A stretch of DNA of 64,000 nt from Escherichia coli. GTDB lineage: Bacteria; Pseudomonadota; Gammaproteobacteria; Enterobacterales; Enterobacteriaceae. Shown piece after piece: positions 3,827-44,780 of the stretch. Both the position numbers and the translations under genes were made by a program. Every line of letters begins with the position of its first letter. The stretch's first letter is position 1. Where the stretch lies: assembly GCF_051903065.1 (NCBI RefSeq), contig NZ_CP178438.1; one strand, written 5' to 3'. The notes under the pieces were generated by a model, which was given only the letters and a program-made list of their open reading frames with translations, did not search any database and was not told the origin of the DNA.

Positions 3827-4330
3827 TTATTGATAGTGTTTTATGTTCAGATAATGCCCGATGACTTTGTCATGCAGCTCCACCGATTTTGAGAACGACA
3901 GCGACTTCCGTCCCAGCCGTGCCAGGTGCTGCCTCAGATTCAGGTTATGCCGCTCAATTCGCTGCGTATATCGCTTGCTGATTACGTGCAGCTTTCCCTT
4001 CAGGCGGGATTCATACAGCGGCCAGCCATCCGTCATCCATATCACCACGTCAAAGGGTGACAGCAGGCTCATAAGACGCCCCAGCGTCGCCATAGTGCGT
4101 TCACCGAATACGTGCGCAACAACCGTCTTCCGGAGCCTGTCATACGCGTAAAACAGCCAGCGCTGGCGCGATTTAGCCCCGACATAGCCCCACTGTTCGT
4201 CCATTTCCGCGCAGACGATGACGTCACTGCCCGGCTGTATGCGCGAGGTTACCGACTGCGGCCTGAGTTTTTTAAGTGACGTAAAATCGTGTTGAGGCCA
4301 ACGCCCATAATGCGGGCTGTTGCCCGGCAT
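3827..4330 (-). CDS. insB: IS1 transposase InsB
   Basis: 167-aa [29 protein letters not shown]... Confidence 0.9.
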
Positions 4331-4524
4331 CCAACGCCATTCATGGCCATATCAATGATTTTCTGGTGCGTACCGGGTTGAGAAGCGGTGTAAGTGAACT
4401 GCAGTTGCCATGTTTTACGGCAGTGAGAGCAGAGATAGCGCTGATGTCCGGCGGTGCTTTTGCCGTTACGCACCACCCCGTCAGTAGCTGAACAGGAGGG
4501 ACAGCTGATAGAAACAGAAGCCAC
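4249..4524 (-). CDS. insA: IS1 InsA
   Basis: 91-aa [43 protein letters not shown]... Confidence 0.9.
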
Positions 4525-4646
4525 TGGAGCACCTCAAAAACACCATCATACACTAAATCAGTAAGTTGGCAGCATCACCCACTGCATAAATTAATGTGAT
4601 GCCGGGATGTTTTTTGTGTTTCCCGGCATCTTTATAGCGATATCAA

Positions 4647-5651
4647 TTATTTACTGAGCGTCGCGACCATCACCGCTTTGATGGTATGCATGCGGTTTTC
4701 CGCCTGATCAAATACAATGCTGGCGGCAGATTCGAAGACCTCATCAGTCACTTCCATTCCGCCATGTAGGCCAAACTCTTCCGCCATTTTCTTGCCAAGC
4801 GTCGTCTGGTCGTCATGAAAAGCGGGCAGGCAGTGGAGGAATTTGACCTCAGGGTTACCAGTCAACTGCATCATCTTGCTGTTCACCTGATAATCACGCA
4901 GCAATGCAATGCGTTCAGCCCATTTCTCTTTTGCTTCACCCATCGACACCCATACATCGGTATAGATAAAGTCAGCACCTTCAACTCCTTTGGCTACATC
5001 TTCCGTCAGCGTAATATCCCCGCCATTTTGCTGTGCCAGGGCGCGGCATTCCGTAACCAGCGCAGCTTCCGGCCAGCATGCCTGTGGCGCGACCAGACGC
5101 AAATCCAGACCGGTAAGCGCCGCAGCTTCGAGCATCGAATTGCCCATGTTGTTACGTGCGTCACCTGCATAGACCAGCGTCATTTCGTTGAATGCTTTAC
5201 CGGGTAAATGCTCCTGCATGGTGAGGAGATCCGCCAGCAACTGCGTGGGGTGAAACTCATTGGTCAGGCCGTTCCATACCGGCACGCCAGCGTATTCCGC
5301 CAGTGTTTCGACAATCTCCTGACCATAGCCGCGATACTGAATACCGTCATACATGCGACCCAGCACGCGGGCAGTGTCTTTAATCGACTCTTTATGACCA
5401 ATCTGACTGCCGCTTGGGCCGAGATAAGTAACGCGAGCACCCTGGTCATATGCGGCAACTTCGAAAGAGCATCGGGTACGGGTCGAGTCTTTTTCGAAGA
5501 TGAGCGCGATGTTTTTACCAGTGAGTTTGGCTTCTTCTTTGCCGCTTTTCTTATTGGCTTTCAGCTTCGCGGCTAACTGCAGCAGGCTGTTGAGTTCAGC
5601 TGGCGTGAAATCGAGTAATTTCAGGAAATGCTTATGATAAAACCCGGACAT
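4647..5651 (-). CDS. argI: Ornithine carbamoyltransferase
   Basis: 334-aa ORF with STRTR carbamoyl-phosphate motif and HCLP motif; full-length match to ArgI as recalled; next to pyrBI as in K-12. Confidence 0.95.
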
Positions 5652-18844: not shown

Positions 18845-18929
18845 GCCGAAGTGGCGAAATCGGTAGACGCAGTTGATTCAAAATCAACCGTAGAAATACG
18901 TGCCGGTTCGAGTCCGGCCTTCGGCACCA
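18845..18929 (+). tRNA. leuX: tRNA-Leu(CAA)
   Basis: GCCGAAGTGGCGAAATCGGTAGACGCAGTTGATTCAAAATCAACC...GGTTCGAGTCCGGCCTTCGGCACCA, 85 nt with long variable arm and encoded CCA. Confidence 0.97.
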
Positions 18930-19115: not shown

Positions 19116-20381
19116 ATGGCATTAACAGATATCAAAGTCAGAGCAGCCAAGCCAACGGATAAGCAATATAAGCTGACTGATGGTGGCGGTATGCATCTGC
19201 TTGTCCATCCAAATGGTTCTAAGTACTGGCGTTTGCAGTACCGTTATGAGGGAAAGCAAAAAATGCTGGCACTTGGGGTTTATCCTGAAATCACACTAGC
19301 GGATGCCAGAGTACGTCGTGACGAGGCGCGTAAGCTGCTTGCGAATGGCGTCGATCCGGGAGACAAAAAGAAAAATGATAAGGTTGAACAGAGTAAAGCA
19401 CGAACCTTTAAAGAAGTCGCGATTGAGTGGCATGGCACCAATAAAAAGTGGTCTGAAGATCACGCCCATCGTGTGCTAAAAAGTCTGGAAGATAATCTTT
19501 TTGCAGCGCTTGGTGAACGTAATATCGCTGAGTTAAAAACTCGAGATTTATTAGCACCCATTAAGGCCGTAGAAATGTCTGGACGTCTTGAAGTGGCCGC
19601 TCGTCTTCAGCAGCGCACTACAGCCATCATGCGCTATGCAGTGCAAAGTGGGTTAATTGATTATAACCCGGCACAAGAGATGGCTGGGGCGGTTGCTTCC
19701 TGTAATCGACAACATCGTCCCGCGCTTGAATTAAAGCGCATCCCTGAGTTGCTTACAAAAATAGATAGCTATACTGGTAGGCCGCTAACCCGATGGGCGA
19801 CAGAACTCTCTTTGCTGATCTTTATTCGGTCCAGTGAGCTGCGTTTTGCTCGTTGGTCAGAGATCGATTTCGAAGCGTCTATATGGACTATCCCACCGGA
19901 GCGGGAGCCTATTCCTGGAGTGAAACATTCCCATAGAGGCTCAAAAATGCGTACAACGCATCTAGTGCCTCTTTCAACGCAAGCTCTTGCAATTTTAAAG
20001 CAGATAAAACAGTTTTGTGGGGCCCATGACTTGATATTTATTGGTGATCACGATTCGCACAAACCCATGAGTGAGAATACGGTAAATAGTGCGTTACGGG
20101 TCATGGGGTATGATACAAAAGTAGAGGTTTGTGGTCATGGCTTTCGAACAATGGCCTGTAGTTCATTGGTCGAATCAGGTTTGTGGTCTCGTGATGCTGT
20201 TGAACGTCAGATGAGCCACATGGAGCGAAATTCAGTGAGGGCCGCGTATATCCATAAAGCAGAGCATCTGGAAGAACGCCGCTTGATGCTACAATGGTGG
20301 GCCGATTTTCTGGATGCAAACAGAGAAAAATTTATCAGTCCATTTGAATATGCAAAGATTAATAATCCATTAAAACAGTAA
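19116..20381 (+). CDS. int: P4-type tyrosine integrase
   Basis: 421-aa ORF next to tRNA; C-terminal catalytic region HGFRTMACSSL...RAAYIH. Confidence 0.9.
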   Translation: MALTDIKVRAAKPTDKQYKLTDGGGMHLLVHPNGSKYWRLQYRYEGKQKMLALGVYPEITLADARVRRDEARKLLANGVDPGDKKKNDKVEQSKARTFKEVAIEWHGTNKKWSEDHAHRVLKSLEDNLFAALGERNIAELKTRDLLAPIKAVEMSGRLEVAARLQQRTTAIMRYAVQSGLIDYNPAQEMAGAVASCNRQHRPALELKRIPELLTKIDSYTGRPLTRWATELSLLIFIRSSELRFARWSEIDFEASIWTIPPEREPIPGVKHSHRGSKMRTTHLVPLSTQALAILKQIKQFCGAHDLIFIGDHDSHKPMSENTVNSALRVMGYDTKVEVCGHGFRTMACSSLVESGLWSRDAVERQMSHMERNSVRAAYIHKAEHLEERRLMLQWWADFLDANREKFISPFEYAKINNPLKQ

Positions 20382-20704
20382 TCATCCCGGGCAAATGCCC
20401 GGGAACTTACTCCATGAATATTTTCTTTGTTAAAAAGGCAAAACGATATTAACTGATGTATTAAATGTTTACCGGATTGCTCCCTGCAGGTGGATTATCA
20501 GAATCCGCAGTTATTCGTTATTTATATATATTCAATAAAAAGAAACATCATAAAAAATCCCGCACCCACAGGGTGATGCGGGATAACTGACGTAAGGAAT
20601 GTTACCGGGATTTGGTGGTCCCTTGTGCTGATATGAATACAGGTTCTATTCTATACAGAATCCTTTTCAGTACAAGAGACTGTATTACAGTTTGCCATAT
20701 ATGA

Positions 20705-22204
20705 TTACCTGTGGTCCGGAAGAATAAGTGGCTGCGGTTTCAGACTGTCTGCCGGCACATTTTTCTCTCCGTTAAAAACCATAACGGGTTCATTATCTTC
20801 GTCTGTCAGCGGATTGAATGGCGGTATATTTTCGGTACGAATACCGGTCAGCCACTGAAAAATGCCTGCGAAATTACGGGCACTGATTTTCCTGCTGACG
20901 GACTGATGAGACGTGATGTCACTGGCGGTAATAATCAGGGGAACGCTGTAGCCCCCCTGCACATGACCATCATGATGAACAGGATTAGCACTGTCGCTGA
21001 CCGACAGCCCATGGTCAGAAAAGTAAAGCATTGCAAAGTGACGGGAATGCCGGCGAAGGATACCATCAAGCTGACCGAGAAAGTTATCCAGTTTACTGAT
21101 GCTGGCGAGGTAACAGGCAATCTTTCGGGGATACTGCTCCAGGTAATAATTCGGCCAGGAGTTAAGTCGGTCACACGGATTCGGATGAGAGCCAATCATG
21201 TGCAGGAAAATCACCTTCGGCGAGGATTTATCCGCCAGCGCACGTTCTGTTTCCTGTAACAACAACATGTCATCCGTTTTACGGGAAGCGAAGCTGCCTT
21301 TCTTGAGGAAAACGGTATGCTCCGCATCAGAAGCAATAACAGAGATGCGTGTGTCATGCTCTCCCAGTTTTCCCTGATTGGATATCCACCATGTGCTGTA
21401 TCCTGCTTTTGCTGCCAGCGCCACCACGTTGTTGCCGGAGTCAGGGTTCTGCTCATAGTCATAAATCAGTGTCCGGCTCAGGGAAGGTACGGTACTGGCT
21501 GCTGTCGATGTATAGCCGTCAATAAATAAACCGGGAGCAGTATTCAGCCACGGCGTGGTTGGCACGGGATAGCCATATACCGACATATAATCCCTGCGCA
21601 CACTCTCACCAGTAACGATAACAATCGTGTCATACAACGGCACACCCGGCAGGATTTTCCAGTTATCAGCCCCGTGCTGACTCAGTTGTTTATAACGCTG
21701 CATTTCACGCAATGTGTCAGTTGTCCCCACAACAGTTCCTTTAACCATCCGCAACGGCCAGCTGTTTACAGAGCATAATACGAATAGCAGCAGTGCCAGC
21801 CAGTTACGGTGACCGCGGTGGTGTGTCCGCCAGAAAATCACCATGAATACCAGAATCGCGGCACTGACCAGAAAATGATAAACAGGAATCATCCCGGTAA
21901 ACTCTGCAGCCTCATCAGCCGTGGTCTGCAGCAACGCGACAATAAAACTGTTGTTGATTTTACCGTACGTCATACCCGCAGGCGCATACAGTGCACAACA
22001 GAACAGAAATAACAGCGCTGTAATGGATGTGAGGGTATTTCTGTGTGCAAGGAGAAGAAGGAGAAACAGAAGCAGCACATTTCCTGTGGCATTCTTCTCA
22101 GTGTATCCGCATGCAATTGTGGTTATTGCAGAAACAACAAAAAAGAATAAAAACAATAAAATCCGGGGTGTGTTTCCCGGACAAAACAGTTTTCTGATAT
22201 TCAT
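20705..22204 (-). CDS. Membrane-anchored sulfatase-family protein (phosphoethanolamine-transferase-like)
   Basis: N-terminal multi-TM segment then soluble domain with metal-binding-type motifs (TGESVRRD, HMIGSHPNP); family call from memory of architecture only. Confidence 0.55.
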   Translation of the reverse strand: MNIRKLFCPGNTPRILLFLFFFVVSAITTIACGYTEKNATGNVLLLFLLLLLAHRNTLTSITALLFLFCCALYAPAGMTYGKINNSFIVALLQTTADEAAEFTGMIPVYHFLVSAAILVFMVIFWRTHHRGHRNWLALLLFVLCSVNSWPLRMVKGTVVGTTDTLREMQRYKQLSQHGADNWKILPGVPLYDTIVIVTGESVRRDYMSVYGYPVPTTPWLNTAPGLFIDGYTSTAASTVPSLSRTLIYDYEQNPDSGNNVVALAAKAGYSTWWISNQGKLGEHDTRISVIASDAEHTVFLKKGSFASRKTDDMLLLQETERALADKSSPKVIFLHMIGSHPNPCDRLNSWPNYYLEQYPRKIACYLASISKLDNFLGQLDGILRRHSRHFAMLYFSDHGLSVSDSANPVHHDGHVQGGYSVPLIITASDITSHQSVSRKISARNFAGIFQWLTGIRTENIPPFNPLTDEDNEPVMVFNGEKNVPADSLKPQPLILPDHR

Positions 22205-22363
22205 CGGAGTATATCGACAACATTATGATGAAGAGAACAGGATAATAAAAATCAGAAATTATCTGTAAAACAGATAACAGACAACCCTGCAGTATAATTA
22301 CTGCAGGGTGTTTCCTTTTAATTACAGAAGATAAGTAATTATTATCTTTCAGGAGCAGTTTCG

Positions 22364-23104
22364 TCAGAAGTTATAAGTCACACCAAGCATGATGTCATGA
22401 CTTTTAACATCAACCTCTGATTTATATTTATCGCCCCACTCATCCTTGTAACTCACACTGCTGTCACCTGCATCAATATAGCGATAGCTGAGGTCAAGAG
22501 CGATATCCGGGGTTACGTCATAACGGACACCAGCCCCAAGGCTCCATGCAAAGTTGTCAGCAGAGTCTGAGTGTGACAACGACTCACGCCCACTGTACCC
22601 GTACCCATAATCCCAGGTACTGATACCAGTTGTTTTCTGATGAATTCTGGCGTAACCAATCCCTGCGGATACCCATGGTGTGAATGCACTGTCGTTCCGG
22701 AAGTCATAGTACGTATTCAGCATCAGAGTGTTGACTGACACTTCATTCTTCAGGTCATCACGCCAGTAACCACCTGACCAGCTGTCTTTATCTACGTTAT
22801 ACTTCGAATCAGCTTTTCCACGCGCGTAAAACTCCAGTTCTGTACGAACCGGAATACTGAACTGCGGATAAAAATCATAACCGGCCGCAATACCGCCACT
22901 GAATACCGTATCATGGTCATCGCCGCCTTTATACTTTGACGTTTCTTCCTCATCTCCTGACAGGAAACGCTGGTCTGAAAGTGACACCACAGAGGCACCG
23001 GCTTTACCGGTCAGATAAAAACCGCTTTTACCTTCCTCAGCACCTGCATTTGCTGCAAATACACAGGCTGCGGCCACCACTGAAACAGCAAAAACCTTTT
23101 TCAT
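22364..23104 (-). CDS. Small outer-membrane beta-barrel protein
   Basis: Signal peptide MKKVFAVSVVAAACVFAANA, alternating amphipathic strands, C-terminal GVTYNF with terminal Phe. Confidence 0.65.
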   Translation of the reverse strand: MKKVFAVSVVAAACVFAANAGAEEGKSGFYLTGKAGASVVSLSDQRFLSGDEEETSKYKGGDDHDTVFSGGIAAGYDFYPQFSIPVRTELEFYARGKADSKYNVDKDSWSGGYWRDDLKNEVSVNTLMLNTYYDFRNDSAFTPWVSAGIGYARIHQKTTGISTWDYGYGYSGRESLSHSDSADNFAWSLGAGVRYDVTPDIALDLSYRYIDAGDSSVSYKDEWGDKYKSEVDVKSHDIMLGVTYNF

Positions 23105-23455
23105 TTCAATTATCTCCGTTATTGCTCCGTTGCTGCAAGCAGTACTCAGTGCATTTTAAAACCCGCCATGCGATAGTCTCAATTGAATAAAATCGATCTA
23201 ATCGATAGATGATATCGATCGTCATTAACCAGAAATTTTTATCGTATTCAGTCAGCACAGATACAACAAATGCATGCCATGCAGACAGTCATACCCGGCA
23301 ACAACAGCAGATGGTTGCTGAGCAAGCAGGGAGTGAGGCTGAATCCCGGGGAAGAAAAAACCTGTAAAATTTGTTTATTCTGCCAGGAGATAAAAGTGAC
23401 GTGTGTTCATGTAACACACCAGGGACGAAAGATGCATGGACTGACAGTTTGGGGG

Positions 23456-24511
23456 GGCTTTGTTGAATAAATCGAACTTTTGCTGAGTTGAAGGATCAGA
23501 TCACGCATCCTCCCGACAACACAGACCATTCCGTGGCAAAGCAAAAGTTCAGAATCACCAACTGGTCCACCTACAACAAAGCTCTCATCAACCGTGGCTC
23601 CCTCACTTTCTGGCTGGATGATGAAGCGATTCAGGCCTGGTATGAGTCGGCAACGCCTTCATCACGAGGAAGGCCCCAGCGCTATTCTGATCTCGCCATC
23701 ACCACCGTTCTGGTGATTAAACGCGTATTCCGGCTGACCCTGCGGGCTGCGCAGGGTTTTATTGATTCCATTTTTGCCCTGATGAACGTTCCGTTGCGCT
23801 GCCCGGATTACACCAGTGTCAGTAAGCGGGCAAAGTCGGTTAATGTCAGTTTCAAAACGTCCACCCGGGGTGAAATCGCACACCTGGTGATTGATTCCAC
23901 CGGGCTGAAGGTCTTTGGTGAAGGCGAATGGAAAGTCAGAAAGCACGGCAAAGAGCGCCGTCGTATCTGGCGAAAGTTGCATCTTGCTGTTGACAGCAAC
24001 ACACATGAAGTTGTCTGTGCAGACCTGTCGCTGAATAACGTCACGGACTCAGAAGCCTTCCCGGGCCTTATCCGGCAGACTCACAGAAAAATCAGGGCAG
24101 CCGCGGCAGACGGGGCTTACGATACCCGGCTCTGTCACGATGAACTGCGCCGCAAAAAAATCAGCGCGCTTATTCCTCCCCGAAAAGGAGCAGGTTACTG
24201 GCCCGGTGAGTACGCAGACCGCAACCGTGCCGTTGCTAATCAGCGGCTGAGCGGAAGCAATGCACGGTGGAAATGGACAACGGAATATAACCGTCGCTCG
24301 ATAGCGGAAACGGCAATGTACAGAATGAAGCAGTTGTTGGGAGATTCACTGACGCTGCGTGACTACGATGGTCAGGTAGCGGAAGCTATGGCCATGGTGC
24401 GTGCGTTGAACAGGATGACAAAGGCTGGGATGCCAGAAAGCGTGCGTATTGCCTGAAAATCCAGCCAGCTACAGGGTCGTTCGCACGAAATCTTATTTAT
24501 TCAACAAAGCC
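23456..24511 (+). mobile_element. IS903-like element (IS5 family)
   Basis: Terminal inverted repeats GGCTTTGTTGAATAAATC (23456) and GATTTATTCAACAAAGCC-like (to 24511); no matching flanking duplication. Confidence 0.88.
23533..24456 (+). CDS. IS903-family transposase
   Basis: VAKQKFRITNWSTYNKALINRGSLTFWLDDEAIQAWY... matches IS903/IS102 transposase as recalled; probable GTG start at 23533. Confidence 0.88.
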   Translation: MAKQKFRITNWSTYNKALINRGSLTFWLDDEAIQAWYESATPSSRGRPQRYSDLAITTVLVIKRVFRLTLRAAQGFIDSIFALMNVPLRCPDYTSVSKRAKSVNVSFKTSTRGEIAHLVIDSTGLKVFGEGEWKVRKHGKERRRIWRKLHLAVDSNTHEVVCADLSLNNVTDSEAFPGLIRQTHRKIRAAAADGAYDTRLCHDELRRKKISALIPPRKGAGYWPGEYADRNRAVANQRLSGSNARWKWTTEYNRRSIAETAMYRMKQLLGDSLTLRDYDGQVAEAMAMVRALNRMTKAGMPESVRIA

Positions 24512-25624
24512 CATACCCCTCTGAAAATCAGTCATCAACTCACCAACACATCTTCTGAAATCTGTATTAAACTTATTGCTTAAATAGATGATATAACACA
24601 TCTTCCATTGCACGGAATCAGCGAAAACTGTCATTCTGGCAATCTTAACAAGATCATTTATCGGTTAATTTTATCAGTAAACAATGGAATATCACACTGA
24701 TAAAATGAACATTCAGGGTAAGATGATAAAATTCACATAAAAAATGCTGAAGATTATTTATTTCATGCAGATAAACGATAAAATACAAGAGAGTATATTT
24801 TTCAGTGTAAGAGTCAATCGTTCATCTCCACTGACGATCACGGTCAGCACATAAACAAAGTGAGTCCTCCTGCTTAGTCATTGCGTATCAGAAACTAAAA
24901 AACAAAAGATTCTGTAAACAACGTGACATTTTTTATGACATTTCCCGAATACAGATATATCAACAAACAGTAGTCAGCGTTGAATTAATAAGTTTTACAG
25001 GGCTATACGTATCTTATAAAACCACTCAACGACCATCATCACCTGACTATTTAGCGGGAGTATCATCTGTATAAATTCCTAAATAATAACACCTGTTATT
25101 AAAATAAGAATGCTGTCAGCAGTAAATTATTAACATAACACCTGTCCACTCTATCTGTTCTTCTAACTCAACCGGCATCGAAAATATTGCCTGATTAGTG
25201 CATCATAGCCTTCTTTTTTCTTTCCCGACCATCAAAACAAATACAACATTTACAACCACACAATAAAACAAAACTAAAACAAAACTAAAACATAAGATTA
25301 ACAACACCAATCAACAGGAAAACACTGAATATTGAGGTGCCCTGTAACCTGGAGAGCGCATACGGCGCATGTGATCAACACAGCCCATTCTTTTCTGTCA
25401 TCCCCCAAATGCAGAACAAACAAGCATAACCTAATGAATATAAAATAAAATATTATTTTTCACCATCATAAAAACATCAATGTATCTTTATATAAAAACA
25501 CTGATAACATGACATAAACATTTAAAAACATAAACAAATCACAACAAAAACATTTGATAATCACTTAGTGACAAAATAAAATTGAGACGATTTTGTTATA
25601 AGAGAGGCGCCATGGAGTGAGATA

Positions 25625-26644
25625 ATGAATAACGAACAGATGCTTATCAAATGCAAAGATCCCCGTAAATGTCGGTTTTATGCTGAATATCTGAATCACA
25701 AATACCCCAATGAATTCCCTCAGTTTGCGCCTGACAACCCACAAAACTGTATCAGAAATGTTAATGCGTTTTTAAAAGAAAAGTATTGTAATACTTCAAA
25801 CAATTCTTTTGGTGTTTTTGGTTCGACTGCAGAAGAAGCTCTCAGCAAAGAAATTAATGAACTTGAAATTATTGCAGGGCAGGCAATACTGCCTGAAGAG
25901 AGTTTTCTCTGGTTGAAAACTGACGAACTTGCGACTTTCTTTACCTGGACTACTATTTATCTGTCGAAGGAAGACCATACAAATTTCCCGGAAATAAACC
26001 ATAATTCATCAGGGATAAAAAACGGAATTGAAGTCAGAAAAAGACGAACAGTTACCGATGAAACGTTAAATACTTACAAAAAAAGTAACCTTCCGGATAA
26101 TCCATCATCCCATAACGAACGAATAAAAGTAATCATTTTATATTTTGATTCCTGTCATTCTTTAATTAATAAAAATGCAAAAAGCATATACCTCGAGGAA
26201 CTCAGGCAGACGTGGCTTAAAAATAAAAGCGCTTGTCAAAAGTTTAAGTGGCTCCTTCCTGACGATGATGAAATGTGTCAGTGGTTCTGGACAAGACTGA
26301 AACAAAAACAGGATGAAACACATCCGGTACATAACCCGGTGACCCGGTGGTTCATACCATCTTCAACGAAAGAATATTATCTTGCCTCTCTCGTCGCCTT
26401 TGCTTTATGGAAAGAGGCACCTGATACCATTGAACTGTTCAGAACACGCATAAATCATGCCTGGCATCAAAAAAAACAAAAAGACAAATATCGGAATGAT
26501 GGTAAAAAGGCTATTAATATACATATAAGAAGCAATGCGAAAGAAATGCTTGATGAACTCAGAACTGTTTACGGTCTGAGAACAGGAGAGTTTTTTGAAA
26601 TGCTGATTACAGAAAAATATCTTGAACACAAGCGAAGGAAGTAA
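25625..26644 (+). CDS. Hypothetical protein, AT-rich, lysine-rich C-terminus
   Basis: 339-aa ORF preceded by GAGAGG RBS-like sequence; no recognisable motif. Confidence 0.5.
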   Translation: MNNEQMLIKCKDPRKCRFYAEYLNHKYPNEFPQFAPDNPQNCIRNVNAFLKEKYCNTSNNSFGVFGSTAEEALSKEINELEIIAGQAILPEESFLWLKTDELATFFTWTTIYLSKEDHTNFPEINHNSSGIKNGIEVRKRRTVTDETLNTYKKSNLPDNPSSHNERIKVIILYFDSCHSLINKNAKSIYLEELRQTWLKNKSACQKFKWLLPDDDEMCQWFWTRLKQKQDETHPVHNPVTRWFIPSSTKEYYLASLVAFALWKEAPDTIELFRTRINHAWHQKKQKDKYRNDGKKAINIHIRSNAKEMLDELRTVYGLRTGEFFEMLITEKYLEHKRRK

Positions 26645-26753
26645 TTCATTACCTGTTACATTCTAAATAATCTCAGACAGATATTATCTCCGTGAATCCC
26701 CCGCCACCTTTCCGGTGCGCGGGGTTTTGTCTTTTTTCACCGGGAATACATGT

Positions 26754-27581
26754 ATGAATCCGTCTGATGCCATTGAGGCAATTGAAAAACCGCTCTCCTC
26801 CCTGCCTTACTCACTTTCCCGTCACATCCTGGAACATCTGCGCAAACTCACCAGCCACGAACCCGTGATTGGCATTATGGGGAAAAGCGGGGCCGGTAAA
26901 TCCTCACTCTGTAATGCACTGTTTCAGGGGGAGGTCACCCCGGTCAGTGATGTTCACGCCGGCACCCGGGAAGTGCAGCGCTTCCGTCTGAGTGGCCATG
27001 GTCACAGCATGGTTATCACTGACCTGCCCGGGGTGGGCGAGAGCCGTGACAGGGATGCAGAGTATGAAGCCCTGTACCGTAACATTCTGCCTGAACTTGA
27101 CCTGGTACTGTGGCTGATTAAAGCCGATGACCGTGCCTTGTCTGTGGATGAGTATTTCTGGCGACACATTCTGCACCGGGGACATCAGCAGGTGCTGTTT
27201 GTGGTGACGCAGGCCGATAAAACGGAGCCCTGCCATGAATGGGATATGGCCGGTATTCAGCCTTCTCCCGCACAGGCACAGAACATTCGCGAAAAAACGG
27301 AGGCGGTATTCCGTCTGTTCCGGCCCGTACATCCGGTTGTGGCCGTATCGGCTCGCACCGGCTGGGAACTGGATACGCTGGTCAGTGCGCTCATGACAGC
27401 GCTTCCCGACCATGCCGCCAGTCCCCTGATGACCCGCCTGCAGGACGAGCTGCGCACGGAATCTGTCCGCGCTCAGGCCCGTGAACAGTTTACCGGTGCG
27501 GTGGACCGGATATTTGACACGGCGGAGAGCGTCTGTATTGCCTCTGTTGCCCGCGCGGTATGGAACTGGATTTTCTTCTGA
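26754..27581 (+). CDS. YeeP/YkfA/YfjP-family GTPase
   Basis: P-loop GIMGKSGAGKSSL, DLPG switch motif, TQADK; likely start MNPSDAIEAIE at 26754. Confidence 0.8.
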   Translation: MNPSDAIEAIEKPLSSLPYSLSRHILEHLRKLTSHEPVIGIMGKSGAGKSSLCNALFQGEVTPVSDVHAGTREVQRFRLSGHGHSMVITDLPGVGESRDRDAEYEALYRNILPELDLVLWLIKADDRALSVDEYFWRHILHRGHQQVLFVVTQADKTEPCHEWDMAGIQPSPAQAQNIREKTEAVFRLFRPVHPVVAVSARTGWELDTLVSALMTALPDHAASPLMTRLQDELRTESVRAQAREQFTGAVDRIFDTAESVCIASVARAVWNWIFF

Positions 27582-27780
27582 ACCCGGTGGTGATGCACCA
27601 GACTCTTGTTACAGATTTTTAACTCCATGAAAACACAATGCAAACGCAGCCATACCCGGGTTGTCCCCTTGTGTTGTGTTTTCCAGATTAATAGAATGCA
27701 TCGATCGTTATAAACGATCGTTTGTGGTAAATGACCTCCTCCGTGGTTGTCATGAAAATGCGTCTCAGGAAGGTTAAATA

Positions 27781-30165
27781 ATGCACGAAAAGAACATCGC
27801 CCTGCTTTGTGATGAAGCCGACCGACTTTTGCAACTGAACATTAATCTGCTCCGGCAAATGGTTGATGAACCGGATGTGTTATCTGACAGTAAGAACGAA
27901 AACAGACTGCTTTTCGATAAACAGAAAGCACTGAAAAGAATTGAGGAGCTGGAGGGCGAACAAATCAAAACCGCCCGCAGGGAGATGGTGCTGGCTGTTG
28001 TCGGCACGATGAAAGCAGGTAAATCAACTACCATCAACGCCATTGTGGGGCAGGAAATTCTGCCTAACCGTAACCGCCCCATGACCTCTGTACCGACGCT
28101 CATCCGCCACGTTCCCGGAAAAACTGAGCCGGTCCTCCATCTGGAACATATTCAGCCCGTCCGCAATTTATTAAGCACACTGCAACAAAAACTCGACACC
28201 CCGGCAGGACAGCAAGTCGCACAGACCCTGCAGCAAACCGGGGATACCTGCGAACTGCTGGATATTCTGGCAAATGATGGCTGGCTCAAAAATGAATACC
28301 ACGGGGAGGAGGAAATCTTTACCGGACTGGCATCGTTAAACGATCTGGTTCGCCTTGCTGCGGCAATGGGGAGTGAGTTTCCTTTTGATGAATACGCAGA
28401 AGTGCAGAAACTGCCGGTGATCGACGTGGAATTCAGCCATCTGGTGGGGATGGATGCATGCCAGGGAACACTCACACTGCTGGATACCCCCGGCCCTAAT
28501 GAGGCCGGACAACCGCAGATGGAAGTGATGATGCGGGATCAACTGCAGAAAGCCTCTGCGGTGCTGGCGGTGATGGATTACACCCAGATGAACTCAAAAG
28601 CGGATGAAGACGTCCGTAAAGAGCTTAATGCCATTGCTGACGTATCAGCCGGCCGCCTGTTTGTGCTGGTCAATAAATTTGATGAGAAAGACCGCAATGG
28701 CGATGGGGCAGATGCCGTACGCCAGAAAGTTCCGGCAATGCTGAACAGTGATGTGCTGCCCGCCTCCCGCGTTTATCCAGGCTCATCACGTCAGGCGTAC
28801 CTGGCTAACCGTGCGCTTCATGAGTTACGGAAAAACGGAACCCTTCCTGTTGATGAAGCCTGGGTCGATGATTTTGTCAGGGAAGCCTTCGGTCGCATGA
28901 AAAAAGAATACGTCTGTAAAGACAGTGAAATGGCAACCGAAGGGGCGACAGACCTGTGGGAAGGTTCACTTATCGATCAACTGATAACGGAAGTCATACA
29001 GAGCTCCCATTCCAGAGCGGCGGCACTGGCGGTTGATTCTGCCGCCGCAAAACTGATGCAGAATGCGGAAAATGTCAGCGAATATCTGTCATTACGCCAT
29101 CAGGGGCTACAGCAAAGCATTCAGTCACTGCAGGCGCATATCTCCAGCCTGCTGGCGGATATCCGGGAAATCGCGGACTGTCAGGAGCAGGTGACCGCAG
29201 ATGTCAGAATGGCTATGGAGGAGATCGATACTAAAACCCGGGAATTACTGACGGGGGTCTGCACCTCACTGGAAGAGGAGCTGAATGACTATTTCAGAAG
29301 CGGTAAACGCAAAGAACAGCAAATGCTGGAGGAAGAAAATTCAGCGCAGCCCCGGGAGAGAAACGCATTCGCTTTCTTTCACGATATTTTCGGAACCGGA
29401 AATCAGCATGACAGGATGCGGGACTTTGATCCGGACAGCCCCGAAATAAAATTCAGTGATCGCAGGGAAGCCCTTGAACTGATGACGCAAATCGAATCGA
29501 CCGTGACCAGCCTGCACCGTGAGGCTGAAGCACAGTTCCGTCCTGAACTGGAAAAAATCGTCAGGGGTATTGAAACAGGTTTTCGTGGTACGGCCCTGTA
29601 CGCCACAGAAAATATTGCCGGACGCATCAATGCCCGTCTGGAGGATGAAGGTTTCACTGTAAAAATCAGTTTTCCGGCAGTCAGCCAGTTACAGACCCGG
29701 CTCGCAGTAAAAACAAATCTGAGCGCGCTTATGGAGGAAAGAACGGAGACCGTCACTCGTCGCTGTCGACAGGATGGTGTCTGGGGTACGCTTTGTCGAT
29801 GGGCAAACACCAGTGACTGGGGCTGGAAAGAGTACAGTGTGGATGTGAGCCGCAGCGTGATCAATATCAACAAGGTCAGAGAGGAAGTGATGTCACTGAC
29901 CCGGGCATATTTCGGGGAGCTGCAGGCATCCATTGAGCAGGATATTAACCAGCCCGTCCGCCAGGAAATCGATGCCTTTTTCTGCGCATTCAGGGAGAAA
30001 GTTGAACAACTGCGTAACACGCTGATTCAGAGCTCTGAAGATCGTAAACGCGATCAGCAGGCGCAGGAACGGCTTACCGGGCGACTTCAGGCATTAAATG
30101 AAAGGGTTCCTGAGCTCATTACTGACAGTAAGGCGCTGAGGGAAGAGCTGGAGACAATGCTGTGA
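27781..30165 (+). CDS. Dynamin-like GTPase, CrfC/YjdA paralog
   Basis: 794 aa; G1 motif VVGTMKAGKSTTINAIVG, LDTPGPNE, VLVNKFDEKD; long coiled-coil C-terminal half; RBS AGGAAGG upstream. Confidence 0.85.
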   Translation: MHEKNIALLCDEADRLLQLNINLLRQMVDEPDVLSDSKNENRLLFDKQKALKRIEELEGEQIKTARREMVLAVVGTMKAGKSTTINAIVGQEILPNRNRPMTSVPTLIRHVPGKTEPVLHLEHIQPVRNLLSTLQQKLDTPAGQQVAQTLQQTGDTCELLDILANDGWLKNEYHGEEEIFTGLASLNDLVRLAAAMGSEFPFDEYAEVQKLPVIDVEFSHLVGMDACQGTLTLLDTPGPNEAGQPQMEVMMRDQLQKASAVLAVMDYTQMNSKADEDVRKELNAIADVSAGRLFVLVNKFDEKDRNGDGADAVRQKVPAMLNSDVLPASRVYPGSSRQAYLANRALHELRKNGTLPVDEAWVDDFVREAFGRMKKEYVCKDSEMATEGATDLWEGSLIDQLITEVIQSSHSRAAALAVDSAAAKLMQNAENVSEYLSLRHQGLQQSIQSLQAHISSLLADIREIADCQEQVTADVRMAMEEIDTKTRELLTGVCTSLEEELNDYFRSGKRKEQQMLEEENSAQPRERNAFAFFHDIFGTGNQHDRMRDFDPDSPEIKFSDRREALELMTQIESTVTSLHREAEAQFRPELEKIVRGIETGFRGTALYATENIAGRINARLEDEGFTVKISFPAVSQLQTRLAVKTNLSALMEERTETVTRRCRQDGVWGTLCRWANTSDWGWKEYSVDVSRSVININKVREEVMSLTRAYFGELQASIEQDINQPVRQEIDAFFCAFREKVEQLRNTLIQSSEDRKRDQQAQERLTGRLQALNERVPELITDSKALREELETML

Positions 30166-31067
30166 CTTCACCATTTATTCAACAAATTGCTGATAACCGG
30201 GTATGTCAGGTACTCACCTGTCTTCCTGAAAAATTTGTGGTTGATTTCGCAAACGGAATCGATGTTGCACAGGAGCATATCCGCACGGCCGGAGAGCGCA
30301 CGTTCTTCCGGCGTTTAAAAGAGGGGATGACCGGCGAAGGCGCTGCACGGCAGAATGCCATCAATGCTTCGCTTGCACAGGGCGTTGAGGCGTCCCTGCG
30401 CTGGCTGACGGAGCTGACAACGTCACTTGCCACCACAAACTACGCGATTACCCGGGTAAACGACAGGGTCAGTTCACTGGTCAGTGATACTGCCAGGCTG
30501 GCGCATTATTCGGCTGACACGCGGGAGCAGTTACTCACCCTGGCCGATCAGGTTCACCAGAAACTGAATCATCTTGAAGAAAAACTCCACCGTGTTGACC
30601 AGGTTCAGCGGGCGCAGTTACATCTTGAGCAGATATTCTCATGGTGGAGCGCCGGGCGATATGCGTCATTTTCCCCTGCCGGACGTTGTTATGTGGCACT
30701 TGAAGAGCTTCGCTGGGGCGCGTTTGGTGATGTGATACGCCAGGGCGAAACAGGCCAGGTTAACCAGCTACTGGATATTCTCAGACATAAAGCATTAACG
30801 CAGATGGCACAGGAGAGTGGCGGTAGTGCAACCGTGCGTCTGAACACTCTGGACTGGCTTGGTGGTCAGGGCCGGGAGCAGGCAGATAACGAGTGGCATG
30901 ACGCGATTAACTGGCTGGGGGACTGGTGCAGTGAAGAGCAGCATCCGGTGATCTGGTCAACCACGCAGGCTGCAGAACACTTACCGGTTCGCATGCCTCG
31001 CCTCTGCTCTGCAGAACGCCTCTCTGAAAGTATGGTCGATGAAATATTTCAGAAGGGGGCAGCATGA
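30162..31067 (+). CDS. YjcZ-like protein (partner of the dynamin-like GTPase)
   Basis: GTG start overlapping upstream stop; N-terminus resembles K-12 YjcZ as recalled (LPEKFVVDFANGIDV.QEHIRTAGERTFFRRLK). Confidence 0.7.
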   Translation: MTSPFIQQIADNRVCQVLTCLPEKFVVDFANGIDVAQEHIRTAGERTFFRRLKEGMTGEGAARQNAINASLAQGVEASLRWLTELTTSLATTNYAITRVNDRVSSLVSDTARLAHYSADTREQLLTLADQVHQKLNHLEEKLHRVDQVQRAQLHLEQIFSWWSAGRYASFSPAGRCYVALEELRWGAFGDVIRQGETGQVNQLLDILRHKALTQMAQESGGSATVRLNTLDWLGGQGREQADNEWHDAINWLGDWCSEEQHPVIWSTTQAAEHLPVRMPRLCSAERLSESMVDEIFQKGAA

Positions 31068-32134
31068 GTACAGAAATGAAAACGGGGCTGGTGCTGTCCG
31101 GCGGCGGGGCGGTGGGCGCTTATCAGGCAGGTGTGGTTAAGGCACTGGCAGAGTGTGGCACACAGATCAGCATGGTTTCAGGGGCCAGCATTGGCGCATT
31201 CAATGGTGCCATTATCGCGGCCTCTCCCGATCTGTCAGAAGCAGCCGCACGCCTGGAGGCGCTCTGGAAGCATCTGGGGAATAATCAGGTGCTGTCGGTA
31301 AACCGATCGGTTTACTTTTCATTGCTGAAAAAAATGGTTCAGGCCATGAACCTCTGCCAGATCCCCGGACGTGCAGGAGCACTGCTTACGACACTTCTTC
31401 GCCATATATCGATAATCAACGGCTTCGACAATCCGATGGCTCAGCCGCTGTTGTCAGATGAGCCTCTGACAGCGCTGTTGGATCATTATCTTGATACTGA
31501 TGCTCTGGCAGACGGGCTACCGCTGTATGTGTCGCTGTACCCCACAGAAGGGGGCATGCAGGATATTATTGACTGCATTCGTGCTGAACTGGGTGCCGGA
31601 ACCACGAAAAACGCCGTTTTTCAGCATATCCAGAGCCTGCCCCGCGGACAGCAGAAAGAGGCTCTGCTTGCGTCAGCCGCGCTGCCCCTGCTGTTCCGTC
31701 CCCGTGAGGTTCAGGGGACAATGTTCGGTGATGGTGGTATGGGAGGATGGCGAAATATGCAGGGAAATACCCCTGTGACGCCTCTGGTCGATGCCGGATG
31801 CAATATGGTGATTGTGACGCATCTGAGTGACGGTTCTTTATGGGATCGCCAGGCTTTTCCGGACACCACAATCCTTGAGATCCGTCCCCGGAAAAGGCTG
31901 AAATATGCAGGTGATGGTGGCAACAGCGGCGGTCTGCTCAGTTTCACGTTGGCACATACCGACGCCTGGCGTCAGCAGGGCTATGAAGACACGATGCTGA
32001 CGATGGAGCATATCCGGAAACCGCTGGCAGCACGTCAGGTACTGTCCCGGTCAGAAACGGTGTTGCAGAAAAGTCTGGAGATAACGGAAGAGGCAGATTT
32101 GGCACTGAGAAACGCGATGGCCCGGATTAAATAA
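31064..32134 (+). CDS. Patatin-like phospholipase
   Basis: ATGA start/stop overlap with upstream gene; Gly-rich loop LSGGGAVGAYQAG, nucleophile elbow GASIG (GxSxG), DGG motif in FGDGGMGG. Confidence 0.85.
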   Translation: MSTEMKTGLVLSGGGAVGAYQAGVVKALAECGTQISMVSGASIGAFNGAIIAASPDLSEAAARLEALWKHLGNNQVLSVNRSVYFSLLKKMVQAMNLCQIPGRAGALLTTLLRHISIINGFDNPMAQPLLSDEPLTALLDHYLDTDALADGLPLYVSLYPTEGGMQDIIDCIRAELGAGTTKNAVFQHIQSLPRGQQKEALLASAALPLLFRPREVQGTMFGDGGMGGWRNMQGNTPVTPLVDAGCNMVIVTHLSDGSLWDRQAFPDTTILEIRPRKRLKYAGDGGNSGGLLSFTLAHTDAWRQQGYEDTMLTMEHIRKPLAARQVLSRSETVLQKSLEITEEADLALRNAMARIK

Positions 32135-38087: not shown

Positions 38088-38257
38088 TGGAGCACCTCAA
38101 AAACACCATCATACACTAAATCAGTAAGTTGGCACCATTACCAGAAATAGTGACCAATAACTATTTATGTAAATTACATTAAAAACAAAAAAAATACTGC
38201 GCTCTTTATTTTTTACTTATTATCTGATAAAGTATCCCTCGTAGATTTATATAGGGG

Positions 38258-39580
38258 ATGATTATGCGCAAGTATTATTATTTTTTTATATATTCCGTAA
38301 TATCTTTTAATTCCATAGCAGCAGATCCACAAGTGAAACAAGATGATGGGGTGGGTAGTGATTCTTTTTTTATTACAAGTTCTTCTAACACACCAACCAA
38401 GAAAGAAAATGTACAGGGGACTAATTCTGTTGCTATTGGCAATAATGTTCAGATTAAGAAGGGAGATGGTTCAGATCTCAAAAATATGAGTGACGGTTCA
38501 GTAGCTATTGGAAATGGTGCCTCAACTATGTATGAAGGAACTACTGCTGTGGGTAAAGGGGCAAAAGCAACTGGCTGGCGCTCAACAGCAATTGGAGTGG
38601 GTGCGACCACAAATGCTGAATCAGCTACAGCCATGGGTAATGGTGCAAATGCCAATAACTGGGGGGCTAGCGCATACGGGACTATCGCAAAAGCAACGGG
38701 TACAAACTCAACAGCAATAGGTAATGCAGCTCAAAGTTCAGGAGAACTTTCTACAGCATTAGGTGTTTCATCACAAAGTACTGGGCATTATTCAGCAGCG
38801 CTAGGTACTTTATCTAAGGCTGAAGGATATGGTTCTGTTGCTACCGGCCTTCATGCTAATGCAAAATCTCAATATGGTATTGCACTCGGTTCATATTCAG
38901 TCGCTGATCGTGCCGCACTTGATGATACAATGTTGGGAGCTATTTCTGTAGGCGGTACAGCTAATGACACTCTAGGGTACAGGACACGTCAAATTATTAA
39001 CCTTGCAGCAGGGACAGAAGATAATGATGCCGTGAATGTATCACAACTTAAGAAAGAGGCAGGAGAAAGAGTTGCGGGCGATGCAGCTACCTTAACAGCA
39101 GCTAAGAATTACAGCGATGCTGGTAATAAACAAACGCTGAAAACAGCTAATGAATATAGCGACGCTGGCGATGCGAAAACATTACAGACAGCAAAGAATT
39201 ATAGTGACACCGGAGACGAGAGAACACTGAACAGTGCTAATAATTATACCAATACTGCCGTTAAGAAAAGCAATGCCAATACGCTTTATCAGGCAAATCA
39301 GTATACTAATCAGAAGTTCTCTGAATTGCGTAAAGTAGTTGATGAAAATCGTAAACGTTCGGATGCCGGCATTGCCGGAGCTATGGCTATGACGGCGATT
39401 GCACCTGTCCCCTATAAAGATTATTCATTCGGTATGGCTGCAGGTGGCTATCGCGATCAAGGTGCAATTGCGGCAGGGATTAATATCAAAACAAGTGAAA
39501 GCTCGTTAATGAAAGTAAATGCATCTTGGGACAGCCAGAATGGTGGTGGTATTGCGGCTGGTTTTAATGTCGGATGGTAA
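38258..39580 (+). CDS. YadA-like trimeric autotransporter adhesin
   Basis: Signal peptide; head repeats (NSVAIGNN, SVAIGNGA, STAIGVGA, STAIGNAA); neck-like NAVNVSQLK; stalk repeats AKNYSDAG/ANEYSDAG; C-terminal anchor ending GFNVGW. Confidence 0.8.
   Translation: MIMRKYYYFFIYSVISFNSIAADPQVKQDDGVGSDSFFITSSSNTPTKKENVQGTNSVAIGNNVQIKKGDGSDLKNMSDGSVAIGNGASTMYEGTTAVGKGAKATGWRSTAIGVGATTNAESATAMGNGANANNWGASAYGTIAKATGTNSTAIGNAAQSSGELSTALGVSSQSTGHYSAALGTLSKAEGYGSVATGLHANAKSQYGIALGSYSVADRAALDDTMLGAISVGGTANDTLGYRTRQIINLAAGTEDNDAVNVSQLKKEAGERVAGDAATLTAAKNYSDAGNKQTLKTANEYSDAGDAKTLQTAKNYSDTGDERTLNSANNYTNTAVKKSNANTLYQANQYTNQKFSELRKVVDENRKRSDAGIAGAMAMTAIAPVPYKDYSFGMAAGGYRDQGAIAAGINIKTSESSLMKVNASWDSQNGGGIAAGFNVGW

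Positions 39581-41223: not shown

Positions 41224-44780
<3,557 letters not shown>

Follow-up and report, generated by a model that had tools for sequence, protein, structure and literature searches.

The two genes that follow the integrase of a genomic island in Escherichia coli raise a question about the cell envelope: do they form a resistance determinant, or do they encode functions of another kind, and do they act separately or together? The initial annotation of this DNA saw a membrane-anchored sulfatase-family protein with the architecture of phosphoethanolamine transferases that modify LPS or glucans, next to a small outer-membrane barrel of Ail/OmpX size, and held that both could alter surface properties, for example resistance to antimicrobial peptides or serum. 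The whole stretch analysed, here called the window, comprises 64,000 nucleotides of E. coli chromosome (contig NZ_CP178438.1) and carries an island inserted at the tRNA-Leu(CAA) gene leuX. The transferase and adhesin genes make up a conserved module, lying next to the integrase, that has been described before from tRNA-associated pathogenicity and fitness islands of E. coli. Very little in this arrangement is new, and the adhesins form a well-studied family. The reading preferred here, with a probability of roughly 0.85, is that the adhesin and a transferase paralogous to OpgE are two independently useful envelope genes. The elements concerned are the following.

18845–18929, plus strand: tRNA-Leu(CAA) gene leuX, where the island is integrated (ARAGORN; Rfam tRNA, 59.4 bits).
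19116–20381, plus strand: P4-type tyrosine integrase of 421 aa (domains Arm-DNA-bind_3, Phage_int_M and Phage_integrase; RefSeq annotation).
20705–22204, minus strand: YjgX-type phosphoethanolamine (pEtN) transferase of 499 aa (Pfam, NCBIfam, PDB match, BLAST, alignments, AF2/Foldseek and dN/dS).
22364–23104, minus strand: Hra1/Hek-type outer-membrane adhesin of 246 aa (Pfam OMP_b-brl, identities, UniRef names, AF2 and Foldseek).

The gene order ahr-leuX-int is shared with K-12. The transferase gene is convergent with the integrase gene and, together with the adhesin gene, is the first to follow it; both lie on the minus strand, start with ATG, are intact and occupy exactly the positions at which two open reading frames had been marked beside the integrase. 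In strain GDSC2BY4G the 3-kb segment is 100% identical, and RefSeq names its products 'phosphoethanolamine transferase' and 'outer membrane protein'. Among 5426 complete E. coli genomes, 3162 match some part of the segment and 1246 have one place that covers 80% or more of the 3-kb query; chance-ORF status is ruled out for both 20705–22204 and 22364–23104. An Rfam search for regulatory RNA in the intergenic regions returned the tRNA and one chance-level match, and nothing else.

The family of the larger protein is clear from its domains, its layout and its residues. A domain search, which the initial annotation had named among the checks on its proposal, recovered Sulfatase PF00884 (7e-37, 127.8 bits against a cut-off of 25) over residues 193–446, and EptA_B_N PF08019 at a marginal 23.2 bits against a cut-off of 22.3. 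Hydropathy places five hydrophobic segments in the first 155 residues (~15–33, 43–61, 58–76, 106–124 and 136–154), and the AF2 model (pLDDT 88.9) has its membrane-domain helices between residues 12 and 177, giving a five-helix inner-membrane anchor (~12–155) followed by a periplasmic catalytic domain of the alkaline-phosphatase/sulfatase fold (~190–499). The catalytic set consists of E200, T238, H340, D397, H398 and H411; across 45 homologues reaching down to 22% identity the first five never vary and conservation of H411 is at least 90%, and all six fall in conserved columns of an alignment with OpgE, YhbX, EptA, EptB and EptC. By sequence the protein matches EcEptC in the PDB at 1e-17; in Foldseek the model matches EcEptC (6a82) with E=4.5e-18 and a TM score of 0.73 normalised to the target, while the full-length model reaches 0.59–0.63, normalised to the query, with MCR-1 (9nww) and NmEptA (5fgn). 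The fold of the catalytic domain, the five-helix N-terminal domain, and the Thr nucleophile with metal-binding Glu, His and Asp-His are those of the pEtN transferase superfamily, so that the architecture seen at the outset holds. From sequence and model, the 499-aa product is a full-length, membrane-anchored member of this family. Experimental work on YjgX-type enzymes was not found in the searchable literature, where the function of yjgX and yhbX appears as annotation only, plus the use of the K-12 pseudogene as a negative control; it is for this reason that we infer both the transferase activity and its acceptor.

The nearest characterised relative is OpgE (YbiP), the K-12 pEtN transferase for osmoregulated periplasmic glucans (OPGs), whose function was demonstrated by mass spectrometry of OPGs (PMC3818809). 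It is the sole K-12 paralogue whose alignment spans the entire protein (30% identity over 513 aa, E=4e-74), membrane and catalytic domains alike, and it has the same catalytic residues. Since this nearest relative acts on glucans, the early wording 'LPS or glucans' was apt. However, 70% of the residues differ, and K-12 opgE is a separate chromosomal gene adjoining ompX; with 30% identity and an island location at leuX rather than beside ompX, the transferase was classed as a paralogue and orthology to OpgE was rejected. An identity of 30% is also too low for substrate specificity to be transferred. EptA, EptB, EptC (CptA) and MCR have the architecture, catalytic residues and fold in common with the island enzyme, but share only 22–25% identity with it, confined to the catalytic domain. 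A close relative on the small Shigella-type plasmids for O-antigen modification (opt) was considered and dropped, as the search of plasmids produced nothing of the kind beyond a 24%-identity match on one of 7.5 kb; large E. coli plasmids carry the nearest plasmid homologues, at 52% identity.

The smaller protein matches OMP_b-brl PF13505 at 3.2e-22. It begins with a signal peptide (~1–22; an AF2 helix at 3–22), continues with eight long beta-strands and ends in ...TYNF; the AF2 model (pLDDT 88.3) has the signal helix and then eight strands, and its best PDB matches in Foldseek are the eight-stranded barrels NspA, OmpA, Ail and OmpX, which bears out the small outer-membrane barrel of the initial annotation. 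Its assignment to the Ail/OmpX type did not survive. The Ail_Lom Pfam match is absent, BLASTP against K-12 OmpX gives a weak local alignment (30% over 53 aa, E=8e-5), and the protein has 246 residues against 171 in OmpX; the Foldseek matches to Ail (3qra, E=3.7e-7) and OmpX (1qj9, E=4e-6) rank under NspA and OmpA and speak for fold class only, and the Ail/Lom/OmpX family was accordingly discarded. With high identity along its entire length to a founding member, a signal peptide, an eight-stranded barrel and a C-terminal aromatic residue, the 246-aa barrel belongs by sequence to the Hra1/Hra2/Hek/Hes/Tia family of adhesin-invasins. Compared with Hra1 of enteroaggregative E. coli (EAEC) 042 it shows 89.8% identity over all 246 residues without a gap, the 25 substitutions being divided between the signal peptide (11) and the mature protein (14), where 210 of 224 residues are identical. 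The predicted barrel of eight strands is common to both. Hek (NMEC, UPEC) and Hes (LEE-negative STEC) are allelic relatives of Hra1. Tia of ETEC H10407 is of the same family and likewise island-borne, but at 64% identity is far more divergent in the surface-exposed segments. The exact sequence occurs on 806 contigs and is entered in UniRef as 'Heat resistant agglutinin 1'; its cluster also contains members called Hek or Tia. Identities within the family run from 65 to 90%, and its members vary in phenotype (PMC5539235). An adhesin phenotype is predicted for the allele in the window from alleles 86–90% identical to it.

Three pattern matches, all from a consensus scan, bear on how the two genes may be expressed.

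20557–20584, minus strand: terminator-like hairpin, a 10-bp stem followed by TTTTTATGAT (pattern match only).
22284–22309, no strand assigned: perfect hairpin with an 11-bp stem, ACCCTGCAGTA-ATTA-TACTGCAGGGT (also from sequence and alignment).
23153–23182, minus strand: putative promoter-like site TTGAGA-18-TAAAAT, with 10 of 12 matches.

The first is found ~120 bp past the stop codon of the transferase gene. The perfect hairpin is inside the 159-bp gap separating the two genes and is conserved in alignments with three other module alleles, from EAEC 042, Tia-linked and P0020-linked loci; it may partly terminate transcription coming from the adhesin gene. The promoter-like site precedes the adhesin ATG by ~50 bp and lies in sequence absent from EAEC 042, homology to which ends at 23122, 18 bp before the ATG, the regulatory region beyond being unrelated. 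For a conserved transferase promoter, the best consensus match (22269–22242) was rejected, as it is partly deleted in EAEC 042.

The order integrase-transferase-adhesin is found at leuX, at pheV and at a site beside dsbD-cutA, which we take to be pheU. In EAEC 042 the setting of Hra1 is the same as in the window (tRNA, P4-type integrase, pEtN transferase, adhesin), except that the island sits at pheV instead of leuX; the order is also seen at sites of the yqgA/pheV and dsbD-cutA types. Across module copies conservation of the transferase is 92–97%; for the adhesin the range is 58–90%. The order is also on the published map of the LAA island, where ORF4, a 'sulfatase', adjoins hes, ORF5 (PMC5539235); for strains 536, UTI89, RS218 and UM146, a review puts Hek at the head of the leuX island contents (PMC7545054); a GWAS reports 'putative opgE' genes beside integrases near pap (PMC8946752); and YjgX or YhbX was present in every pheU, pheV and selC insert examined in one study (PMC6174562). 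In the module so understood, the adhesin would be a Sec substrate that takes up its eight-stranded barrel form in the outer membrane, and by homology its long surface-exposed strands and loops would mediate haemagglutination, autoaggregation and adhesion to or invasion of host cells. The transferase is anchored in the inner membrane by its five helices with the catalytic domain in the periplasm, where Thr238, if the family mechanism applies, would accept pEtN from phosphatidylethanolamine and hand it to a periplasm-facing envelope glycan. Our best guess for the acceptor is a glycan of the glucan or core type, not lipid A.

Two other accounts of the transferase deserve consideration. In K-12 the same locus reads leuX-intB-yjgX, and the island gene is the intact form of the yjgX pseudogene there (b4575), which lacks the first ~92 codons, is frameshifted near codon 177 and is 92% identical over residues 177–499; IS2 lies between yjgX and intB, and an adhesin gene beside yjgX is absent. 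Truncated and frameshifted copies in K-12 and many other genomes, and the many database matches that span at most 79% of the gene, could suggest a decaying passenger devoid of current function in the window as well. That is scarcely credible for a reading frame that is complete and has kept every catalytic residue, with a copy intact over at least 80% of its length in ~27% of complete E. coli genomes (1450 out of 5426); among intact alleles dN/dS is 0.11–0.20 (dS 0.14–0.26), and judged by these ratios the transferase evolves under purifying selection. The frequency of intact copies also weighs against the enzyme placing pEtN on lipid A/LPS and so conferring resistance to polymyxin and cationic peptides, with the barrel providing Ail/OmpX-like serum resistance, for a polymyxin phenotype in so many genomes would probably have been noticed. 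Both ideas have some footing, as the enzyme shares its superfamily and catalytic residues with EptA and MCR-1 and the barrel its eight-stranded fold class with Ail and OmpX. Yet the NCBIfam models for EptA, EptB, CptA and MCR score 18–108 bits against cut-offs of 404–1250: CptA 107.6 against 404, two EptA models 57.1 against 561 and 39.4 against 660, EptB 47.8 against 493, and the MCR models 18–31 against 1075–1250. These scores are far below every cut-off, and identity as EptA, EptB, CptA or MCR was rejected; with 18–57 bits against 561–1250 for EptA and MCR, and an identity to EptA of 22% in the catalytic domain only, the suggested role in lipid A modification and polymyxin resistance found no support. 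Deletion of yjgX in K-12 left susceptibility to HNP-1 unchanged (PMC4808223), an observation of little weight given that the K-12 allele is a pseudogene. Nor was the serum-resistance role of the barrel, a Hra-family adhesin devoid of an Ail_Lom match, supported: the activities on record for these adhesins are haemagglutination, autoaggregation, adhesion and invasion, and serum resistance is not among them (PMC5539235). The resistance account is therefore unlikely as a whole, and the leuX island is better described as carrying a Hra1/Hek-type adhesin in intact form, beside a pEtN transferase not to be read as a colistin-resistance (EptA/MCR) gene.

A closer relationship between the two products, in which the transferase modifies the adhesin or the LPS in its immediate surroundings, a modification required by the adhesin for full function or immune evasion, is suggested by the way the genes stay together. 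Their adjacency persists while the adhesin diverges to 58–74% identity, and also in homologous pairs whose enzyme is 57–58% identical to that of the window, one in a Salmonella assembly with an adhesin of 51% identity, the other, with enzyme P0116, in two metagenome contexts where the barrel upstream has 248 aa. Moreover, Hra-family adhesins have members of two pEtN transferase subfamilies as neighbours: YjgX-type enzymes directly downstream, as in other Tia-named alleles directly upstream of a 96.6%-identical one, and YhbX-type enzymes nearby, as in H10407 itself, where leoCBA and such an enzyme come after tia, and close to barrel P0040 (61% identity). The enzyme of this second subfamily near tia and P0040 is 62% identical to K-12 YhbX. 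Protein-modifying pEtN transferases do exist, namely Campylobacter EptC and Neisseria PptA. On the other side, transferase homologues of at most 52% identity (IncI-type plasmids, Erwinia, Enterobacter lignolyticus) have no adjacent barrel gene, distant barrel homologues have no transferase neighbour, tight co-transcription is disfavoured because the conserved hairpin separates the two genes, and common descent of one island backbone accounts for the linkage equally well. HB101 is a K-12-type strain, presumably lacking an intact yjgX-type gene; in K-12 MG1655 yjgX is a pseudogene only. In HB101, hes or hra1 cloned alone nonetheless confers haemagglutination, autoaggregation and adhesion (PMC5539235). 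A dedicated partnership, with pEtN on the adhesin or on the surrounding LPS or glycan tuning adhesion, aggregation and antigenicity, is thus quite improbable; if true, it would add a new class of acceptor to the pEtN transferase family in E. coli and give a function to a gene intact in about a quarter of sequenced strains. The YjgX-type transferase is a conserved enzyme under purifying selection that travels with virulence islands.

One further element lies close to the module.

23455–24512, plus strand: IS5-family insertion sequence of 1058 bp (perfect 18-bp inverted repeats; IS5-family transposase domains).

IS5 proper was set aside for this element, as the IS5 terminal repeat is absent and different 18-bp inverted repeats are present; we take it to be IS903-like. 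It lies 350 bp upstream of the adhesin ATG and provides context from outside the module.

The window is E. coli chromosomal DNA; its leuX locus has lptFG, yjgR, ahr and tRNA-Leu(CAA) as neighbours, and the next genes past its integrase are two minus-strand open reading frames, both lying exactly where the initial annotation had placed them. Positions 20400-23400 are matched at 100% identity by E. coli strain GDSC2BY4G (NZ_CP136025.1). The features of this island end are the following, the expression signals being pattern matches only.

19116-20381, plus strand: P4-type tyrosine integrase, 421 aa, after tRNA-Leu(CAA)
20584-20557: good terminator-like hairpin, 3' of the transferase gene
20705-22204, minus strand: 499-aa ORF, RefSeq 'phosphoethanolamine transferase'
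22284-22309: perfect 11-bp-stem hairpin in the 159-bp intergenic gap, kept in three other alleles
22364-23104, minus strand: 246-aa ORF, RefSeq 'outer membrane protein'
23455-24512: IS5-family element, 1058 bp, perfect 18-bp inverted repeats, 350 bp upstream of the adhesin gene

The best-supported reading is that two independently useful envelope genes form a conserved integrase-proximal island end, one a Hra1/Hek-type adhesin and the other a YjgX-type phosphoethanolamine (pEtN) transferase that would act on a putative periplasm-facing glycan. Adhesin plus transferase is a module already known from the literature and from genome annotation.

The sulfatase/pEtN-transferase fold anticipated for the larger protein, whose absence would have refuted the initial annotation, was found. 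Sulfatase PF00884 covers residues 193-446 (7e-37, Pfam), the EptA_B_N match is marginal (23.2 bits against a cut-off of 22.3), and residues 1-155 hold five hydrophobic segments judged by hydropathy. Alignment with K-12 OpgE, YhbX, EptA, EptB and EptC shows that the metal-binding glutamate, threonine nucleophile, GSH histidine and DHG motif are kept; E200, T238, H340, D397 and H398 are invariant in 45 homologs, down to 22% identity, and H411 is nearly so. The closest fit of the AlphaFold2 model (pLDDT 88.9) includes the catalytic domain of E. coli EptC (E=4.5e-18; TM-score normalised to the target, 0.73), and cryo-EM MCR-1 and Neisseria EptA align with the model over its full length.

Among the five K-12 paralogs compared by BLASTP, OpgE alone aligns from end to end (30% identity across 513 positions, E=4e-74), the others (YhbX, EptC, EptB and EptA) in the catalytic domain only, at 22-33% identity. 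OpgE transfers phosphoethanolamine to osmoregulated periplasmic glucans (PMC3818809). All curated NCBIfam cut-offs stand far above the scores of the 499-aa protein: 107.6 against 404 for CptA, 39-57 against 561-660 for EptA, 47.8 against 493 for EptB and 18-31 against 1075-1250 for MCR. The equivalent place in K-12 (leuX, intB, IS2, then yjgX) is occupied by the pseudogene yjgX, which is 92% identical to the window enzyme over residues 177-499, is frameshifted near codon 177 and lacks about 92 N-terminal codons; it is the decayed ortholog. Taken together, the paralog alignments, the NCBIfam scores and the yjgX orthology identify the predicted product of the window gene as an intact YjgX-type enzyme, a paralog of OpgE. 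A dN/dS of 0.11-0.20 among intact alleles indicates that the protein is maintained by selection. A pseudogene reading for the window allele is ruled out by this ratio and by the retained catalytic residues. No experiments on the acceptor of a YjgX-type enzyme were found in the literature searched. The core genome of K-12 MG1655 offers a second example of a small barrel gene adjoining a pEtN transferase gene: ompX (L003 3451-3966, plus strand), encoding an eight-stranded barrel, and opgE (4015-5598, minus strand), whose product is the nearest paralog of the island enzyme to have been characterised, are convergent and 48 bp apart, an adjacency that may be coincidence.

The 246-aa protein matches OMP_b-brl (3.2e-22), more weakly OmpA_membrane and Opacity, and has no Ail_Lom match in Pfam. 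A database search returned hundreds of E. coli proteins, including a cluster named 'invasion outer membrane protein Tia' at 63% identity; an identical sequence on 806 contigs is called 'Heat resistant agglutinin 1' in UniRef, and fellow cluster members are called 'adhesin/virulence factor Hek'. Hra1 of EAEC 042 is 89.8% identical without gaps, 11 of the 25 differences falling inside the signal peptide, and Tia of ETEC H10407 is 64% identical. These values lie within the published Hra-family range, in which Hes, for instance, shares 90% identity with Hra1, 86% with Hek and 65% with both Tia and Hra2 (PMC5539235). In the AlphaFold2 model (pLDDT 88.3) a signal-peptide helix precedes eight long strands; among PDB structures the model is closest to barrels of eight strands (a Legionella Dot/Icm T4SS porin, 9nh2; NspA; OmpA), with Ail and OmpX ranking lower. 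The Hra1 and Tia identities and the barrel model therefore bear out the fold class of the small Ail/OmpX-size barrel proposed initially but not its family or function, so that the earlier interpretation of the pair was half right, holding for the enzyme family and failing for the adhesin. Hra-family activities comprise haemagglutination, autoaggregation, adhesion and invasion (PMC5539235), and heparan sulphate proteoglycan is a ligand of both Tia and Hek (PMC2553418).

The pair recurs as a module. EAEC 042 has pheV, integrase, pEtN transferase and hra1 in that order, oriented as in the window. Contigs with a Tia-named allele or a 74%-identity allele carry the barrel, then a 500-aa Sulfatase protein, then an integrase, and these modules adjoin yqgA (the pheV site) or dsbD-cutA, presumably the pheU site. 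Across 5426 complete E. coli genomes, the transferase gene has some match in 2973 and at least 80% of its length in 1450, an Hra-family gene occurs in 1812, and the two-gene query finds a place with at least 80% coverage in 1246. In the literature, ORF4 and ORF5 of the LAA island of LEE-negative STEC are a 1503-bp 'sulfatase' and hes (PMC5539235), Hek is listed first among the leuX island cargo of strains 536, UTI89, RS218 and UM146 (review, PMC7545054), 'putative opgE' genes adjoin integrases near the pap operon in a bloodstream-infection GWAS (PMC8946752), and YjgX or YhbX was present in every pheU, pheV and selC insert of one study (PMC6174562).

Between modules, transferase identity is 92-97% and that of the adjacent adhesin only 58-90%, with synonymous divergences of 0.14-0.26 and 0.36-1.9, respectively; the adhesin alleles are thus old divergent lineages recombined beside an enzyme gene that varies less. 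The pairing is kept in a Salmonella assembly (enzyme 57-58%, adhesin 51% identical to the window's) and for an enzyme homolog in the same 57-58% range (P0116), preceded in two metagenome contexts by a 248-aa barrel. It was not found for transferase homologs of at most 52% identity (IncI-type plasmids, Erwinia, Enterobacter lignolyticus), nor for distant barrel homologs. The plasmid homolog, about 52% identical, lies on large E. coli plasmids (L013 5001-6536; L014; L032-L034; matches H22-H26) and belongs to a cluster of 1955 member sequences; its context contigs, of IncI-type setting (DotM_C, exclusion protein, hok), keep the order HTH_39, DUF2569, transferase, hok, without a barrel gene. In H10407 (L028 1-6747) tia is followed by leoCBA and a YhbX-type pEtN transferase, 62% identical to K-12 YhbX and 28% to the window enzyme, and a gene 90% identical to it lies five genes downstream of a barrel homolog of 61% identity (P0040; L019 6001-12738). 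Transferases of two different subfamilies are thus found repeatedly in the vicinity of Hra-family genes.

Functional coupling of transferase and adhesin is suggested by the persistence of their linkage and by this second, YhbX-type subfamily near tia and P0040, although shared descent accounts for the linkage equally. We take HB101 to be a K-12-type laboratory strain without an intact yjgX-type gene. Against coupling, hes and hra1 are functional when cloned alone in HB101 (PMC5539235). A role of the pair in lipid A modification, polymyxin resistance or serum resistance is a weak reading, for the enzyme falls far under the EptA, EptB, CptA and MCR cut-offs and EptA aligns in the catalytic domain only.

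The intergenic hairpin has a poor sense-strand U-tract, so partial read-through is possible. The best promoter-like candidate for the transferase is not kept in EAEC 042; another candidate is located some 50 bp ahead of the adhesin ATG. Homology to EAEC 042 upstream of the adhesin ends at 23122. Just upstream of the adhesin gene, EAEC 042 (L027 6965-7172), H10407 (L028 6972-7156) and a Tia-linked contig (L015 5605-5771) carry an integrase 3'-end fragment of about 200 bp, absent from window positions 23105-24512; with the real integrase 3' end it forms a direct repeat flanking the two-gene module, an arrangement suggestive of past tandem accretion of islands.

Further into the island, a 339-aa ORF (25625-26644) within a stretch of 35% GC encodes a RefSeq hypothetical protein without a match in Pfam or NCBIfam. 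The cluster at 26743-32123, annotated as GTPase family, dynamin family (794 aa), RdcB family and patatin-like phospholipase, resembles K-12 rdcA-rdcB by annotation; the barrel-transferase pair of the Salmonella assembly, and that of one metagenome contig, likewise has a small GTPase gene on its upstream side. A YadA-like adhesin and a group II intron reverse transcriptase (ltrA) are found elsewhere (38253-39569, 42695-44203), with several IS fragments, and a CP4-type block at about 57600-63600 comprises DUF932, an antirestriction protein, a JAB-domain protein and a YeeU/CbtA toxin-antitoxin pair.
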